A stretch of 64,000 bases of DNA from Nitrospirales bacterium (lineage in GTDB: Bacteria > Nitrospirota > Nitrospiria > Nitrospirales > UBA8639): NCBI GenBank assembly GCA_965223295.1, contig CBDCWC010000002.1:1088001-1152000 (forward strand), in the 5' to 3' direction. Both the position numbers and the translations under genes were made by a program. Of the stretch, positions 3,026 through 9,235 are shown piece after piece; position 1 is the first letter of the stretch; each line of letters starts with the position of its first letter. The notes beneath the pieces were generated by a model. The model did not search any database. It was not told the DNA's origin and was given only the letters and a program-made list of their open reading frames with translations.

Positions 3026-4159
3026 TCATACCAAGCCGATAGGTTCCAATAGTTCAAAGATTTGATCTTGCCCCGCTATGAACGCAATATCTATGGAAAC
3101 AAACCAAATAGGATCGTTCTTCGTAAACCATTCACGCAATTTGACCGAATCCTTTTCCGTGGTTACAAGCATTCTACATGCGGATTCTGTAATTTTCTTT
3201 CGTAAAAGATCCGCTTCAACTTTCCCATAGTGGCAATGATCAGGAAAAACAATTTCTTCACCAATATACGCTCCACATCCTTCGAGCATGTCATGGAACG
3301 CGCTTGGATTCCCTATGCCGCTGACGACCAATAATGAATTCTCTCGCAAGGATGATACGGGTCTCACCTCTCCAGTCCCCAAATGCTGAATCTGCTTGGG
3401 AACTGCGTTTACAATAAGCGGTCGTATGGATTCTCCAATCGCATCTTCAAGACAAGTCTGAACAGGCTGAACGGATAAAAGAGATTCCGCTCGGGTGATG
3501 GCAATGGCCCCTGCCGCTTTCACCGCACTTAGGGGTTCCCGCAAACGCCCAGCAGGCAAGACATGGCTAAGCCCTTCAAGATCCGTAGCATCACATAACA
3601 CGACATCAAGGTCACGATACAAAGACAAATGTTGAAAACCATCATCGAGCAGGAAACAATCACAGTTGGCCTGCTCCAGCACCCATTGGCCAAGACGAAA
3701 TCGATCAGGGCCCACCGCCACCAGAGCCCATGGGCACTGCTGCGCAATCATTGCTGGTTCATCACCGGATACTTGCCAATCCTTCACATGTCCTTGCCCA
3801 TCAGACACCAGAAGATTACGAGAAATATCCTGACGTCCATACCCTCGGCTGAGAATTGCGACTTGCTTCCCCCTAGCATGGAGTTGTTGCGCTAACCATA
3901 TGACAAACGGGGTTTTGCCAGTTCCACCAACGGTGACATTTCCGATACTCACAACCGGCTTCGGTAATTGCAGCGTCTTTAGCCAGCCTCGTTGATAGGC
4001 CATTCGCCGAACTTGGGCAATCTTACCATAGACCACCGCCAGCCCACGTAACACCCATGGACAGTATCGTTGAAACCGATCCCACATGCGCAACTGACAG
4101 GAAAGATAAGCAGGAGAAAACGTGTTCACTAAGCGCCACGATAACAGATCATGATGCAC
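3026..4159 (-). CDS. lpxK: Tetraacyldisaccharide 4'-kinase
   Basis: [36 protein letters not shown] and TTEKD motifs. True start may be 4087. Confidence 0.93.
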
Positions 4160-4166
4160 AAGAGAA

Positions 4167-5564
4167 CTAGGATGAACCCATTGATGAGAAGCCGTAAGGG
4201 TTCTTCATACCTGGAGACTGTTGAACTGAGTCATCACGAGTAGCATGGCTCATATCAGTTTCAGTCGGATCAAGATAACAAGGTAACTGGCGAATCATCC
4301 TATGATTCTTCTCGACAACGCCACGATTTTGTTGAACGACCAATAAGGCCTGTCGGCCCATTTGCTCAGCCTCAATTGGATGAGTCAACAGATGTACAAG
4401 AGGGTTCAAAACTGCATCGGGTTGTCGCACTTGAAGCGCTCCTCCAGATTCCAGCAATTGCTGGACAATATCTTGACAATGATCAACATACGGCCCAAAA
4501 AGGACAGGGCGTCCCCACTGGGCAGGCTCTAAGACATTATGGCCTCCCACGGGAACCAATGTCCCTCCAACAAAGCCGACGACTCCCAGACCATACACGT
4601 ACGGCAATTCCCCACGAGAATCTAAAAGAATCACTCGAGGTGAGGCATAATCATTCGCCAAATTTTTCTTCTCACCCATCACACTCCGCCGGATACATGG
4701 AAATCCATATGAAGCAATCACTCGCTCTAACTCATAAGCTCGTTCGATATGCCTGGGAGCAATGACCAGAACTATATTGGGCTGTGTCGCGCTCAACGTC
4801 TTATAGGCTTCCAAAAGATGTTCTTCTTCTTGAGGATGCGTACTTCCCGCCACAATAACCTGCTCTTCGTCACTGATGCCCAATGATTTTCGTAGAGCCG
4901 TTGAAGAATCACTTTTTCTCTGTTGCCCAAGAGACTGGTCAAATTTCATATTGCCCGTCACATGCACAACATCTGCTGGCGTACCTAATTTTCTGATGCG
5001 ATCTGCATCACGATCTGTTTGCATGAGCGCCATATCAATTGAAGCCCAAATTGTTTTCATGAACCTCTTGACCAATCGATATCGAGAAAATGAGCGGGAG
5101 GAAATCCGGCCATTGACTAAACATACCGGCACCTGATGTTGCTGAAGACTCGTGAGTAAGTTAGGCCAAAACTCCGATTCTACTAGGAGAAAAAGGCGAG
5201 GTTGAATTGCTCGGACATAACGAGTGACCGCCCACCACATGTCTATTGGCGCATAACAATGCGTGGCAATGCCCTGTAATCGAGTCAACACCATCTCACG
5301 GCCGGTTTCCGTCACAGTCGACACAATCAATTCTTGTCGCGGGTCCGCTTCTTTGATGGCCTTGAGCAAGGGAACCACAGCCGTGACCTCCCCTAATGAG
5401 GCCGCATGAATCCATACGACTGGTCCGGAGTGATTTACTAAGCCAACAGGTACTCTTCCCAATCTCGCTAAGATACCTCGCTGAGATCGTTTCTTAGCCA
5501 AAAGCAGGCTGACAATGACGGGGAACCCCAGGTGTAACAATGTATTGTAGAATAACCAAAACAT
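4167..5564 (-). CDS. waaA: 3-deoxy-D-manno-octulosonic acid (Kdo) transferase
   Basis: WIHAASLGE, VNGRIS, TGNMKFD, AGSTH, APRHIER and GGHNVLEPA motifs. Confidence 0.95.
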   Translation of the reverse strand: MFWLFYNTLLHLGFPVIVSLLLAKKRSQRGILARLGRVPVGLVNHSGPVVWIHAASLGEVTAVVPLLKAIKEADPRQELIVSTVTETGREMVLTRLQGIATHCYAPIDMWWAVTRYVRAIQPRLFLLVESEFWPNLLTSLQQHQVPVCLVNGRISSRSFSRYRLVKRFMKTIWASIDMALMQTDRDADRIRKLGTPADVVHVTGNMKFDQSLGQQRKSDSSTALRKSLGISDEEQVIVAGSTHPQEEEHLLEAYKTLSATQPNIVLVIAPRHIERAYELERVIASYGFPCIRRSVMGEKKNLANDYASPRVILLDSRGELPYVYGLGVVGFVGGTLVPVGGHNVLEPAQWGRPVLFGPYVDHCQDIVQQLLESGGALQVRQPDAVLNPLVHLLTHPIEAEQMGRQALLVVQQNRGVVEKNHRMIRQLPCYLDPTETDMSHATRDDSVQQSPGMKNPYGFSSMGSS

Positions 5565-5570
5565 GAGCAG

Positions 5571-6301
5571 TCATTGGGTGGAAGAAGATGAGCCGTGATT
5601 CATCGTACGAAGAAAGTAGGCAGCAGGGTCAGACTGTTGAACAGCATGTTCAGCTTGTTCGGTCAAAGTATTTAAGGCATGCTGTAGTGCTATTCCATCG
5701 TTTACCAATTGGTCTTTTGTCCTATTGCAAGCTACCATGATGGGCTCACCCCAGATAAACAGTCCCTTGCTCAAAGGAAGAGGGATTTGGAAATGATCCC
5801 AACTCGAAAAGACTTTTTTTTTGAGCAGGCAAAGGTCAGGGGTACGATAGGAAAGCCTGTGAGTTTGGCCAGCAATATGACGCCCATCTGCACATGGCAT
5901 GCGGGACCACGTGGGCCATCTGGAGTAATCACTAAATCGTGTCCTTGACGCCCGATACTGATGAGCTGGCGAAGAGCTTTCATGCCTCCCCGTGTACTGG
6001 ATCCTCGAACGGTGTCAAAACCAAACTGCTGCATGATATTGGCAACCATTCCTCCGTCCCGATGTTGGCTAATCAAAATAGAGGCCGAATGCCCCCGATA
6101 GGCCAAAGGCATCATCAGTTGCCGCCCATGCCAAAACGCTATAATGATAGGCTTCTCTTTTTGGTTAAACGCATCAACCGTTTCTCCAGCAATGGTTGAT
6201 ATCGTCATAGTCTTAGCTAAGACCTTTATCCCCCAAGCGGCAAAAACAGGTACGATATGTAGTTTCAGCCACGTCACCATGCGAGATTCATCTTCATACA
6301 T
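5571..6301 (-). CDS. DUF374 lysophospholipid acyltransferase (LpxJ-like lipid A secondary acyltransferase), split by a -1 frame transition at an A9 run
   Basis: Frame 1 (6301-5771) has FWHGR, LIS.HRDG, VRGSSTRGG and ITPDGPRGP. Frame 2 (5900-5571) supplies the family-typical SWD.F.IP.P..K....GEPI C-terminus. The junction is at T9 (5814-5822). Confidence 0.8.
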
Positions 6302-6304
6302 CTA

Positions 6305-8056
6305 TCAATTAGTCGAAAGAGGCTCTCGTTGAGTGAGTTGAAATTGGGTTTGGTAGAGCTTGGTGTACAATCCACCCTTTTGTAACAACTCGGCATGCGT
6401 CCCGATCTCCTCAATCCGTCCCTCATTCATCACCACTAAACGATCGGCATGTTGCACCGTCGAGAGTCGATGCGCAATCACTAATGTGGTACGGGCCTTC
6501 ATCAGATTGGTCAAAGCCTGTTGTACCAGTTTTTCAGACTCAGAATCTAAAGCAGAGGTGGCTTCGTCAAGAATCAGAATCGGAGGATCACGCAAAATAG
6601 CTCGCGCAATCGCCAATCGCTGTCGCTGGCCACCAGATAACTTCAACCCATTTTCTCCGACGAAGGTGTCGAGGCCCTGCGGCAATCGCTCAACAAATTC
6701 CCACGCATAAGCCGCACGCGCAGCCTCAATAATTTGCTCTTCGGAGGCATCCGGCCGCCCATAGGCAATGTTATTGCGAATTAAATCATCAAATAGCACT
6801 GTTTCTTGAGAAACAATCCCTATTTGACGTCTCAACGAGGAACGGTCTACCAGCCGAATATCCATATCATCAATCATAACTTTGCCTTCTGTCGGACGAT
6901 AAAATCGTGGCACAAGGCTTACCAAGGTGGTCTTACCGCTTCCACTGGCTCCTACGAAGGCCACGACTTCGCCGACCCGCACGGTCAAACTTACCCTATC
7001 GAGCGAACGTTCCTTCGCACCTTCATAGGAAAAACTCACATTAGAAAATTCTAGTTGGCGTGAAATAACAGGAAGAAGGGCCTTCCCCTCATCCTTGGCC
7101 AATTCACTATCAAGATCCAACACGGAAAAGACTCGTTTCCCACCTGCAAGAGCCCGCTGAATTGACGCATTGGCACCTGACATCTTCCTGACAGGCGCAT
7201 AGGCCATGAATAACGCTGTAAGAAAAGAAGAAAATTCCCCAAACTTCATTTCACCAGAAATCACTAAACCACCACCATACCAGATAATAAACGCCACACC
7301 ACAGGAACCAATGATTTCGAGCATAGGAGAAGAAAGCGCAGAAGCTTGAGAAGATTTGACTTGCACTCTCCGAAAAGCCTTATTCATAAGCGAAAAACGT
7401 TCCTCTTCTTTTTCTTCCTGCCCGTACGCTTTGACAATTTTGATTCCGGAAAATGCTTCTTTGAGGACGGAGGCCATACTCCCAATAGATTCCTGGCCTC
7501 GAGTCGAAAATCCCCGTATGCGTTTCCCGACGCGAATCAAGACATAGGCGGATAACGGCAGGACAACTAACACGACTGAAGCCAATTCCCAGCTTCGGTA
7601 AAAGGCCACGCCAATCAGCACGATAAAGGTCAAACCTTGCTGGAACATATCTTTGAGCACGCCCGGTACGGCATTCGCCATTTCATTGACATCACTGATG
7701 ACACGGGCCATCAATCGCCCTGAACTGTTTGCATCATGAAAGCGTATAGGTAAGCGGACGATATGCATGAATAATTGCTGCCGAACATCTGCAATAAGCC
7801 ATTGCCCGACATAGCCCATCAAATAGGACTGTCCATAGGCAAATCCAGCTTTCATGACTGTGATCCCCAAAAGAGCAAGGGGCAACGTGACTCGAGACTC
7901 CGGTTTAAAGTCAATGAAAATATCTTGTAACAGGGGAGCCACTAATATGGCGGTGGCTCCTTGACCAGCGGCAACCCCACCAGAACAAAGAACAGCGATA
8001 AACAATCTGAGACGATAGGGCTTAAGATATTGAACGATACGCCATAAGATATTCAT
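6305..8056 (-). CDS. msbA: Lipid A export ABC transporter permease/ATPase
   Basis: N-terminal TM domain, GASGSGKT, LSGGQRQR, ILDEATSALD. Located in the lipid A operon. Confidence 0.9.
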   Translation of the reverse strand: MNILWRIVQYLKPYRLRLFIAVLCSGGVAAGQGATAILVAPLLQDIFIDFKPESRVTLPLALLGITVMKAGFAYGQSYLMGYVGQWLIADVRQQLFMHIVRLPIRFHDANSSGRLMARVISDVNEMANAVPGVLKDMFQQGLTFIVLIGVAFYRSWELASVVLVVLPLSAYVLIRVGKRIRGFSTRGQESIGSMASVLKEAFSGIKIVKAYGQEEKEEERFSLMNKAFRRVQVKSSQASALSSPMLEIIGSCGVAFIIWYGGGLVISGEMKFGEFSSFLTALFMAYAPVRKMSGANASIQRALAGGKRVFSVLDLDSELAKDEGKALLPVISRQLEFSNVSFSYEGAKERSLDRVSLTVRVGEVVAFVGASGSGKTTLVSLVPRFYRPTEGKVMIDDMDIRLVDRSSLRRQIGIVSQETVLFDDLIRNNIAYGRPDASEEQIIEAARAAYAWEFVERLPQGLDTFVGENGLKLSGGQRQRLAIARAILRDPPILILDEATSALDSESEKLVQQALTNLMKARTTLVIAHRLSTVQHADRLVVMNEGRIEEIGTHAELLQKGGLYTKLYQTQFQLTQREPLSTN

Positions 8057-9180
8057 GAGTGGATTTCAGAGAGGATAAGTTTTGCAGCCCGCTCAGATGC
8101 TCCAGATGTCCCCAACATATTTCGAACCGATTGAAACCCCTCTTTCATGAATTGCTGGCGAGCAGAATCTCCTAAGATCGCTGAGGCTTCGCGGGCAACA
8201 TTGTCCGCAGTCGCCCGTTCTTGCAGGAATTCTGGCACCAATTCCTGTTCGGCCAAAATATTCACAAGCCCTATATATGGAATTGTAACGAGACGTTTCC
8301 CTATTTGATAGGTCAACGGTGATGTCCGGTACACAATAAGCATTGGGGTCCCAATCAGAGCGGTCTGAAGAGTAGCCGTACCCGAGGCTACAAATACAAA
8401 ATCTGACGCCGCAATGACTTCGTTCGGCTTCCCTTTAATCAGGGTCACTGCAGACGAGGCTCGAAGCAGTTCTTGGACAAGAGCATCTGAAAGAGATTCA
8501 GCCTGAGCAACAAGAATCTGCAATTTTGGGTGCTGCTCCTGAAGCCTAGCACAGGCGTGTAACAACATTGGCAAAAGATCTTGGACTTCTTTCGCACGAC
8601 TCCCAGGCAAGAGGCCAATAACCATCTCATTGGCTTTGATCCCAAGAGTCGTTCGCACCGCCTTCACATCATAGGCATCTTGAATCTCATCCAAAAGAGG
8701 ATGTCCCACGTAGTCACAGGCAATGCCTTCTTTTCGGAAAAAACTTTCTTCAAACGGCAAAATTGCCAAGACGCGTGTAATGACTGCACGCATTAGCTGG
8801 ACTCGACGTTTCCCCCAAGCCCAAACCTGTGGGGCAATATAATAAATAATCTTCTGCGACGCTTTGGCCGCAACCTTGGCAAGACGGAGATTCAAACCAG
8901 GACTATCAATCAACACAATGGCATCGAAACGGGTCTGTTTCACTAATTTCGAAAGCTGACGCAAGGTCTTCCAGCCCCCCCATAATTGCTGAATGCCAGG
9001 AACCCCCATAGCATCAACTCTGGCAATGTCAGGCAGCAACTGCACGCCTGCTCGGGCCATATGGCCGCCTCCAACCCCAATGAGATCAATTGAGGGCTCT
9101 AACTCCTGCAGAGCGACAGCCAACTTAGCTCCATGAAGATCTCCAGAAGTTTCCCCTGTTACGAGCAGAATCTTGGACAT
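8053..9180 (-). CDS. lpxB: Lipid-A-disaccharide synthase
   Basis: GETSGDLHG, YIAPQVWAW, YVGHPL, LLPGSR and ASGTATL motifs. Confidence 0.95.
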   Translation of the reverse strand: MSKILLVTGETSGDLHGAKLAVALQELEPSIDLIGVGGGHMARAGVQLLPDIARVDAMGVPGIQQLWGGWKTLRQLSKLVKQTRFDAIVLIDSPGLNLRLAKVAAKASQKIIYYIAPQVWAWGKRRVQLMRAVITRVLAILPFEESFFRKEGIACDYVGHPLLDEIQDAYDVKAVRTTLGIKANEMVIGLLPGSRAKEVQDLLPMLLHACARLQEQHPKLQILVAQAESLSDALVQELLRASSAVTLIKGKPNEVIAASDFVFVASGTATLQTALIGTPMLIVYRTSPLTYQIGKRLVTIPYIGLVNILAEQELVPEFLQERATADNVAREASAILGDSARQQFMKEGFQSVRNMLGTSGASERAAKLILSEIHS

Positions 9181-9235
9181 GTACGAATAGAATACACCAG
9201 GATGGTGTTTAATCACACAATGAAGGTTCTGACGA

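Follow-up and report, generated by a model that had tools for sequence, protein, structure and literature searches.

A conserved A9 run that breaks the reading frame of the lpxJ-like gene in Nitrospirales, a probable site of programmed recoding

To our knowledge, few chromosomal, non-mobile bacterial genes depend on programmed slippage; dnaX, prfB, chelatase genes, and mxiE are examples. Here we describe a further candidate, an lpxJ-like gene of the DUF374 family on the minus strand of a 64,000-nucleotide stretch of a Nitrospirales genome (assembly GCA_965223295.1, contig CBDCWC010000002.1, positions 1,088,001 to 1,152,000; this whole stretch is the window below, and coordinates count from its first base). 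The full product of this gene requires a change of reading frame at a run of nine A's (A9), and the same break recurs across the order. We consider it very likely that this is a genuine, conserved programmed recoding site in the lpxJ-type gene of Nitrospirales and related Nitrospirota, and we favor slippage of RNA polymerase on the run, with a probability of roughly 0.6 as judged from sequence comparison, as the main route to the full-length product.

Several described systems resemble this locus in part. In Thermus thermophilus dnaX (Larsen et al. 2000, as described in the review by Atkins et al., PMC5009743), the coding strand also carries A9, there are two tRNA-Lys species, no ribosomal stimulators are needed, and a mixed mRNA population leads to two products, as we propose for lpxJ. 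The direction of the change differs, since the DNA frame of the Thermus gene gives the long product and slippage the short one, whereas lpxJ, read in its DNA frame, yields the short, probably inactive product and would depend on slippage for the enzyme; the products also differ, a replicase subunit there and a lipid A enzyme here. The clusters of dnaX and chelatase (chlD-type) genes with two open reading frames (ORFs) found with GeneTack (PMC3711429) are alike in that a conserved run of 7-11 A's is where the frame must change to give the full product, but they belong to a different gene family; that study included one Nitrospirae genome, and the passages of its main text name no lipid A gene. 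The -1 frameshift site of E. coli dnaX, A_AAA_AAG, recurs letter for letter and with unchanged phase in the genus of the window, but lpxJ has neither the upstream Shine-Dalgarno (SD)-like element nor the downstream hairpin, a second tRNA-Lys is present, other bacterial families have AAC or AAA as the last codon, and the run is always at least nine long.

Homopolymers also govern full-length products elsewhere. Some regulators and insertion sequence (IS) elements likewise depend on slippage for their full-length product. In the lipopolysaccharide (LPS) genes of phase-variable pathogens, a homopolymer inside the gene controls the full product as well, but there the tract length varies between cells or strains, whereas lpxJ is fixed at the off length in almost every genome. 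In insect endosymbionts, frameshifted genes with poly(A) tracts are reportedly rescued by polymerase slippage. The frameshifted genes of Buchnera and Blochmannia, named in PMC5009743, are alike in that a one-base defect persists through evolution and the downstream frame is under selection; they differ in lying in tiny AT-rich genomes with weak selection and many tracts, whereas the lpxJ break is a single site, in free-living organisms, at 47% G+C, and present throughout an order and outside it. For Buchnera, the passages of PMC5574713 report that no case was found of a transcription error restoring a frame. Finally, the LpxJ enzymes of Helicobacter, Campylobacter, Wolinella, and Rickettsia (PMC6148475) share with our gene the DUF374 domain, the six needed residues, a lipid A cluster, and one LpxL-type gene elsewhere in the genome. 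No frame break is mentioned in the passages of PMC6148475, in which the R. typhi gene is expressed as a single protein.

The entire recoded gene occupies 5571..6301 on the minus strand, as do all the parts that follow, and its predicted full product of 243 amino acids joins 163 frame-0 codons to 80 codons in the -1 frame. The frame-0 part (5813..6301; codons 1-163, M1 to K163) contains W57-H58, H80-R81-D82, and D128 and a Pfam DUF374 match at residues 68-134; the N-terminal ORF matches PF04028 (DUF374) with E 1.8e-28 and 98.3 bits, against a curated cut-off of 26.8. No NCBIfam model covers either half or an in-frame relative, the sole match being a meaningless one of 17.6 bits. The A9 run, the slippage site, lies at 5814..5822 (T9 on the plus strand), with TC before it and G after, and frame 0 reads TGC TCA AAA AAA AAG TCT across it. 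The heptamer A_AAA_AAG (5813..5819) sits here in the frame-0 phase of a dnaX-type -1 shift site; in other families the same position holds A_AAA_AAC or A_AAA_AAA. Past the run, frame 0 has only a tail (5771..5812) of 13 out-of-frame codons and a TGA stop at 5771-5773, and the resulting ORF (5771-6301) encodes 176 amino acids. The C-terminal part lies in the -1 frame (5571..5813), which is open for 80 codons from V164 to Q243 with a stop at 5571-5573; it begins V-F-S-S-W-D-H-F-Q-I-P-L-P and reads ...KKKVFSSWDHFQIPLP...GEPI.... The codons of W168-D169, the family-invariant W-D pair, are at 5796..5801 and become readable only once the frame has changed. In other words, a single further A in the A9 run would bring the two parts into one frame. 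The -1-frame stop lies 6 nucleotides ahead of the waaA ATG at 5564. The first-pass annotation, made from the letters of the window alone, had given the gene span 5571-6301, the A9 run at 5814-5822, the in-phase heptamer, the stop at 5771, and the 6-nucleotide gap to waaA, all of which were right when we re-read the sequence, and it had called the gene LpxJ-like and DUF374, which the PF04028 match (E 1.8e-28) and the essential residues discussed below support.

The genome of the window (3.78 Mb in 3 contigs, 47% G+C) has a single DUF374 copy, this gene, and just 45 A/T runs of nine or more in its entire length. Such a small number of long runs, together with base-for-base conservation of the site with the same break across the order, places the lpxJ break beyond chance.

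The part of the protein that follows the break appears to be indispensable. In R. typhi LpxJ, 3' secondary acylation of lipid A depends on each of W60, H61, D86, D132, W172, and D173 (Guillotte et al., PMC6148475). The recoded product of 243 residues has W57, H58, D82, D128, W168, and D169, so that, in a comparison by residue position, the offset is constant at 3-4 residues. Among 69 aligned, diverse family members (taken from 150 of 8128 representatives at E 0.001 or better), the H, the D, D-G-P, and W-D are invariant, with W-D in 69/69, and the first W is present in at least 90%. The W-D codons come five codons past the break and are absent from the frame-0 product, while natural in-frame alleles with ten A's (A10) read ...SKKKVFSSWD. 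For one such allele (L020; 236 amino acids, ...SSKKKVFSSWD), the AlphaFold model has a predicted local distance difference test score (pLDDT) of 95.8 and a predicted template modeling score (pTM) of 0.91 and is a single compact domain. Its strand region 145-157, inside the sheet, is where the break falls, with three strands and two helices beyond it. The best Foldseek matches of the model are PlsC (5kym), PatA (5f2z), and LpxM (5knk), at E of about 1e-5 and template modeling (TM) scores of about 0.5. Domain, essential residues, a fold of the lysophospholipid acyltransferase (LPLAT) type, and gene context indicate that the product is an LpxJ (DUF374) enzyme, and 3' secondary acylation of lipid A is its predicted activity, from the operon context and the single LpxL-type gene elsewhere in the genome. 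Because the 176-residue frame-0 product is without the essential W-D pair, the three strands, and the two helices, it is probably inactive, and we infer that only the shifted product would be an active enzyme.

The break is conserved throughout the order, membership in which was taken from record titles (Nitrospirales). When 41 related genomes were surveyed by tblastn with both lpxJ halves separately, the N- and C-terminal parts were in different frames, with an identical offset, in 28/30 loci, and the junction was always TC-A9 followed by G, C, or A. A scan of named records (titles Nitrospirales, Nitrospira, Nitrospiraceae, and Nitrospirota bacterium) added 80 loci, several of them duplicates of survey loci. 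A -1 shift is required in 87 of the 90 distinct loci: 60 with A9G, 16 with A9C, and 11 with A10, the last having the following base substituted to A with the total length unchanged. Two of the remaining three loci have A10 in frame and one has no run. The length of the frame-0 tail is not conserved among the 90 loci (2 to 95 codons), while the -1 frame is open for 59 to 94 codons past the run in the distinct loci, plus one case of fusion to waaA. In an even draw of the order, the DUF374 gene is present in 287/301 species genomes, and the frameshift-length site TC-A9-N12-TGGGA in 274/301 (without the unpublished genome G280, 286/300 and 273/300), distributed over families as 104/114 in f1, 151/160 in f2, 18/21 in f3, and 0/5 in f4; the reversed pattern, used as a control, occurs 0 times in every genome. 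Metagenomes were searched with a pattern that tolerated 0-2 extra bases past the run, which found at least 119 stretches, 80 of which became loci. Among the matches listed, 79 of these 80 contigs have A9 and one has A10; 77 are confirmed as frame-split, two are partial, and one is in frame, and the A11 form with two extra bases was found in none of the 80. Across 100 distinct broken loci the run is 9 (81 loci), 10 (18 loci), or 11 (1 locus) long and never shorter than 9.

These counts bear on the first-pass annotation, which had proposed programmed recoding, ribosomal or by polymerase, with phase switching and an assembly error as its alternatives, and had named contiguous orthologs without an A-run as the observation that would speak against it. 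What we found was the opposite: split and run are kept in 87/90 distinct loci, 274/301 genomes, and 79/80 metagenome contigs among the matches listed. We reject phase switching as the main mode, the off length being present in 274/301 genomes, and likewise assembly error for the family, which has the same length across independent assemblies.

An artefact or decay, that is, homopolymer undercalling in assemblies or a pseudogene, is accordingly a highly improbable explanation. Grounds for suspecting it are that the assembly of the window genome consists of 3 contigs, that A10 appears in one near-identical short-read contig, and that public gene callers give a truncated gene (P0014, P0037, P0076). 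Against undercalling, independent assemblies in the hundreds, from single-contig ones to those with hundreds of contigs, agree on the length, and 146 other homopolymer runs lie in ORFs that read through, as against 8 split-like places, mostly gene-end-like. Against decay, this is the sole DUF374 copy in the genome, the -1 frame is stop-free for at least 59 codons in every distinct locus whose stop lies inside the fetched DNA, and the ratio of nonsynonymous to synonymous divergence (dN/dS) is well below 1 in both parts. The three public proteins just mentioned are frame-0 translations from relatives with junk tails after S-K-K-K or S-K-K-N. Recoding in the lpxJ-like gene goes unrecognized by gene callers.

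The dN/dS estimates come from codon alignments of 84 broken loci (3 of the 87 were dropped for length or N) and 400 random pairs, with medians from 173 and 177 unsaturated pairs. In the N-terminal part (frame 0), the proportions of nonsynonymous and synonymous differences (pN and pS) are 0.246 and 0.713 and median dN/dS is 0.16; in the C-terminal part (-1 frame) they are 0.331 and 0.719, with a median of 0.26. Both halves are, by these comparisons, under purifying selection, a check that the first-pass annotation had suggested and that favors its proposal. The run shows a further kind of constraint. TCA AAA AAA is invariant in 84/84 loci against a background of saturated synonymous sites, invariant Pro columns in the same alignment use all four codons, and in the rest of the gene Lys is encoded by AAG 232 times vs 195 for AAA and TCA makes up 83/929 Ser codons. 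Invariance at the run despite mixed codon use elsewhere suggests that the run itself is selected at the nucleotide level.

A further alternative is a split gene, its two ORFs being translated separately and the pieces assembling. In the window, the 67 codons of the -1 frame ahead of the run are indeed free of stops, and the same frame has an ATG at position 5900. Across loci, though, this upstream open stretch can be as short as 5 or as long as 213 codons, the break interrupts the sheet of a single compact domain, and in 43/87 loci there is no ATG, GTG, or TTG between the last upstream stop of the -1 frame and the W-D codons. Those 43 loci rule out a separately started C-terminal piece as the conserved solution, and we regard a split gene as almost certainly the wrong explanation.

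Under the explanation that we favor, RNA polymerase would slip backwards on the A9 run (T9 in the template) while transcribing, and a fraction of mRNAs would thereby gain one A (A10). Ordinary translation of the A10 mRNA would give the full enzyme of 243 residues (...C-S-K-K-K-V-F-S-S-W-D...), and the unslipped mRNA the product of 176 residues, probably inactive. The run would in this way fix the yield of active LpxJ as a fraction of the output of the msbA-lpxJ-waaA-lpxK operon. The action of the polymerase rather than the ribosome, the efficiency, and a dosage-setting purpose are steps that we infer. The first-pass annotation had suggested that recoding or slipped-strand variation could set the ratio of lipid A acylation forms; the frame-0 product, which lacks W-D, is probably inactive and would not supply a second form.

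The chief alternative is that the ribosome does most of the frame change, by programmed -1 frameshifting or by sliding on the A-run, with the mRNA staying A9. We think this possible, though clearly less probable than polymerase slippage. In the window the heptamer has the phase that a -1 shift requires, A_AAA_AAG is the site used by dnaX and IS elements (PMC3711429, PMC5009743), and stretches of A are described as causing ribosome sliding (PMC4363877). Several features of the family point instead to the polymerase. First, a ribosomal heptamer needs only seven bases, whereas the two A's beyond it are invariant here and the run is never below nine in the 100 broken loci. Second, the base after the run is free (G, C, T, or an A that extends it), and in f2, the largest family, the A-site codon is AAC. 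Third, two lineages (f8 and f12) carry the run in another codon phase. Fourth, the stimulators expected of a ribosomal site are not found: an SD-like 4-mer within the 18 nucleotides upstream of the run occurs in 0/87 loci, RNAalifold on 32 loci chosen for diversity from the 87 gives no conserved downstream structure (2 pairs, -0.23 kcal/mol), and the downstream fold of the single sequence gives no structure signal (z = 0.72). Fifth, ARAGORN finds both tRNA-Lys(UUU) and tRNA-Lys(CUU) in the genome. Two tRNA-Lys species have been tied to the replacement of the E. coli frameshift by A9 slippage in Thermus (PMC5009743), and by the same argument the tRNA-Lys(CUU) should hold AAG and favor the polymerase here. 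Published measurements are also consistent with polymerase slippage. Transcription errors on A/T runs are mainly single-base insertions and rise exponentially with run length (PMC5574713), and insertion of a single A is exactly the change that lpxJ needs; in E. coli reporters, runs of 7, 9, and 11 A's gave frame changes of 10%, 40%, and 63% (PMC3711429). Ribosomal shifting or sliding may nevertheless add to the yield.

Some observations weigh against polymerase slippage at a maintained break. Each of the 100 broken loci, the two with the other run phase among them, has a legal -1 heptamer of the X_XXY_YYZ type (A_AAA_AAG, A_AAA_AAC, or A_AAA_AAA), as the ribosomal alternative would have it. 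Long ORFs of the same genome contain about 20 more A9 runs in frame, and if A9 slippage is efficient, those genes must tolerate or use it. In-frame alleles exist, so the break is not indispensable. Inspection of the genomes with the gene but without the pattern (all ten outside f4 and four of the five in f4) showed A10 in frame in G015, G075, and G222, A8-G-A in frame in G042, and in-frame genes with the run eroded to A7 or less in G081, G180, G248, and G284; one metagenome locus, L144, also has A10 in frame. Two others are not in-frame alleles: G068 has TT-A9-C and is still broken, and G190 has A10 with one base fewer downstream, which needs a different shift. The four f4 genomes are in frame without a run, and the fifth (G033) has only a weak match at 35% identity. 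Finally, a public contig more than 99% alike to the window (X1; depth 8.4) differs over 911 nucleotides by one substitution and one extra base, which gives A10 in frame, so that length variation in the DNA or an undercall in the assembly is possible at the window site itself.

This last observation is where phase variation would find its evidence: replication slipped-strand mispairing would toggle the gene between A10 (on) and A9 (off), with expression from A10 cells. Besides X1, a second public run (X5) has contig pieces of both lengths, the A10 in-frame alleles of G015, G075, G222, and L144 would be further on states, and homopolymer switches are known in LPS genes of pathogens (PMC3711429). 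The assembled consensus, however, is the off length in 274/301 genomes and in 79/80 metagenome contigs among the matches listed, and A10 as an on length is seen in three species genomes, one metagenome contig, and one public contig nearly identical to the window. The longer broken runs (A10, A11) were made by substitution rather than insertion and leave the break in place. Because the off state is fixed over a phylum-level span and the downstream frame is under selection, the A9 allele must be expressed, and phase variation is improbable. The A10 of X1 could reflect true length variation within the species, stutter in short reads, or an undercall of the run in the window assembly; a third public contig (X3; depth 48.9), with 20 substitutions, has A9. 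These comparisons of X1, X3, and X5 rest on assembled contigs. Whether the window strain has A9 or A10 leaves the family-wide result untouched.

The distribution of in-frame forms suggests that the break came first. A quick maximum-likelihood tree of 108 distinct rows was rooted on L139 alone; rows that lacked either half or whose N-terminal match was shorter than residues 35-155 were dropped, which removed the in-frame outgroups L138, L140, and L141. In this tree in-frame forms are nested 4 times within broken ones, and 5 state changes are needed. One of the four nestings is f4, which is the sister of f3 with a Shimodaira-Hasegawa-like approximate likelihood ratio test (SH-aLRT) value of 96. 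On this topology the break would be ancient, and the few in-frame forms would have escaped from it secondarily. Since the broken form is kept in about 97% of f1-f3 genomes, although a change from A9 to A10 is easy and an eroded in-frame allele would be stable, selection appears to maintain the break.

The break extends beyond the order. The looser site A9-N12-TGGGA is present in 67/251 genomes of the phylum. Fifteen sites outside the order were fetched, nine of which are DUF374 genes with the same -1 break, from f5 and f6 of the same class and f7 and f19 of other classes; the other six pattern places (L131-L136, including families f15, f9, and f11) are chance occurrences with no DUF374 match and were discarded. 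Family searches in 15 single genomes from other families found broken genes with the run in another codon phase in f8 (CGC-A9-C) and f12 (CGT-A9-G) and in-frame DUF374 genes without a run in f11, f14, and f15. The single genomes of f9, f10, f16, f18, f21, f22, f23, f25, f26, and f28 gave no DUF374 match above the Pfam cut-off, that of f26 having a sub-threshold match of 24.9 bits. The break is thus seen in at least nine families: f1, f2, f3, f5, f6, f7, f8, f12, and f19. In the f12 locus (L142, G306:C155), the frame-0 ORF that bears DUF374 is 780 codons long and has the A9 break; fusion to an upstream gene is possible there.

In the window the gene lies within an operon for lipid A and the outer membrane, ordered bamA, fabZ, lpxA, lpxI, a GFO/IDH/MocA oxidoreductase gene, lpxB, msbA, the lpxJ-like gene, waaA, and lpxK, with two heptosyltransferase genes and a haloacid dehalogenase (HAD) phosphatase gene downstream of lpxK. 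Its nearest neighbors, all on the minus strand, are lpxB (8053..9216; identified by Pfam), msbA (6305..8056; a lipid A flippase-type ABC transporter, Pfam ABC_membrane and ABC_tran), which ends 3 nucleotides ahead of the lpxJ start, waaA (4167..5564; 3-deoxy-D-manno-oct-2-ulosonic acid (Kdo) transferase, PF04413, E 2.7e-61), and lpxK (3026..4159; PF02606, E 2.3e-87). The one LpxL-type gene (PF03279) is elsewhere in the genome.

The junction with waaA has features of its own. The waaA start has no SD-like 4-mer within the preceding 16 nucleotides (window 5555-5610, minus strand), and the downstream long ORF starts -4 to +13 nucleotides from the -1-frame stop in 43/64 loci with a callable ORF, a survey whose start-codon choice favors the nearest candidate. 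WaaA translation may be coupled to the recoded frame, the spacing being a lead only. In one relative (L102:1905-3407, plus strand), the -1 frame past A9 runs stop-free into the Kdo transferase (PF04413, E 7.7e-64), and a frame change there would yield an LpxJ-WaaA fusion. In-frame DUF374-WaaA fusions of about 640-680 amino acids are present among the family representatives (e.g. P0008).

A more speculative extension, which we consider doubtful, is that the run acts as a rheostat and is more than an attenuator with a fixed setting: slippage would track temperature, the ATP pool, and elongation rate and so set the share of active-LpxJ mRNA and the amount of fully acylated lipid A, and the same slip might also set Kdo transferase output. 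The extension to WaaA draws on the -1 stop abutting an SD-less waaA start and on the -1 frame entering WaaA in some genomes. If the rheostat is real, lipid A acylation would follow growth conditions without a protein regulator, and one homopolymer would be a conserved tuning device for the outer membrane in the main nitrite oxidizers.

Nitrospira are the dominant nitrite oxidizers in soils, oceans, and wastewater plants, and they are among the carriers of the site, which gives it relevance to nitrifier biology. For annotation, the consequence is that the gene is called as a truncated protein with a junk tail or would be flagged as a pseudogene, and metabolic reconstructions could wrongly score late acylation of lipid A as missing. 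For the field of recoding, the site adds an enzyme of lipid A biosynthesis whose conservation is unusually deep and clean and for which natural revertants can be compared. The site is also a simple test bed for polymerase versus ribosomal slippage, and for the question of why the dose of an enzyme would be hard-wired into transcription fidelity. The lpxJ site is a new case of a known kind: our literature searches, which extended to the main text of PMC3711429 with its supplementary cluster tables outside their scope, found no description of an lpxJ slippage site, in agreement with the earlier statement that none was known for lipid A genes.

Homopolymer runs at two other places in the same genome also drew attention. 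The dnaX gene (634 codons) has an in-frame A10 (G000 C3:1305231-1305240) 45 codons before its stop, and both other frames close within 6-10 codons past the run. We considered dnaX as a second slippage gene, but the place of the A10 is not tau/gamma-like, and no conclusion is drawn. About 13 kb before the start of the window, at a C7/G7 run (G000 C2:1074820-1074826), a frame of 878 codons ends and one of 1502 codons continues in another phase on the same strand; the place holds either one giant gene with a second frame break or two giant genes end to end.

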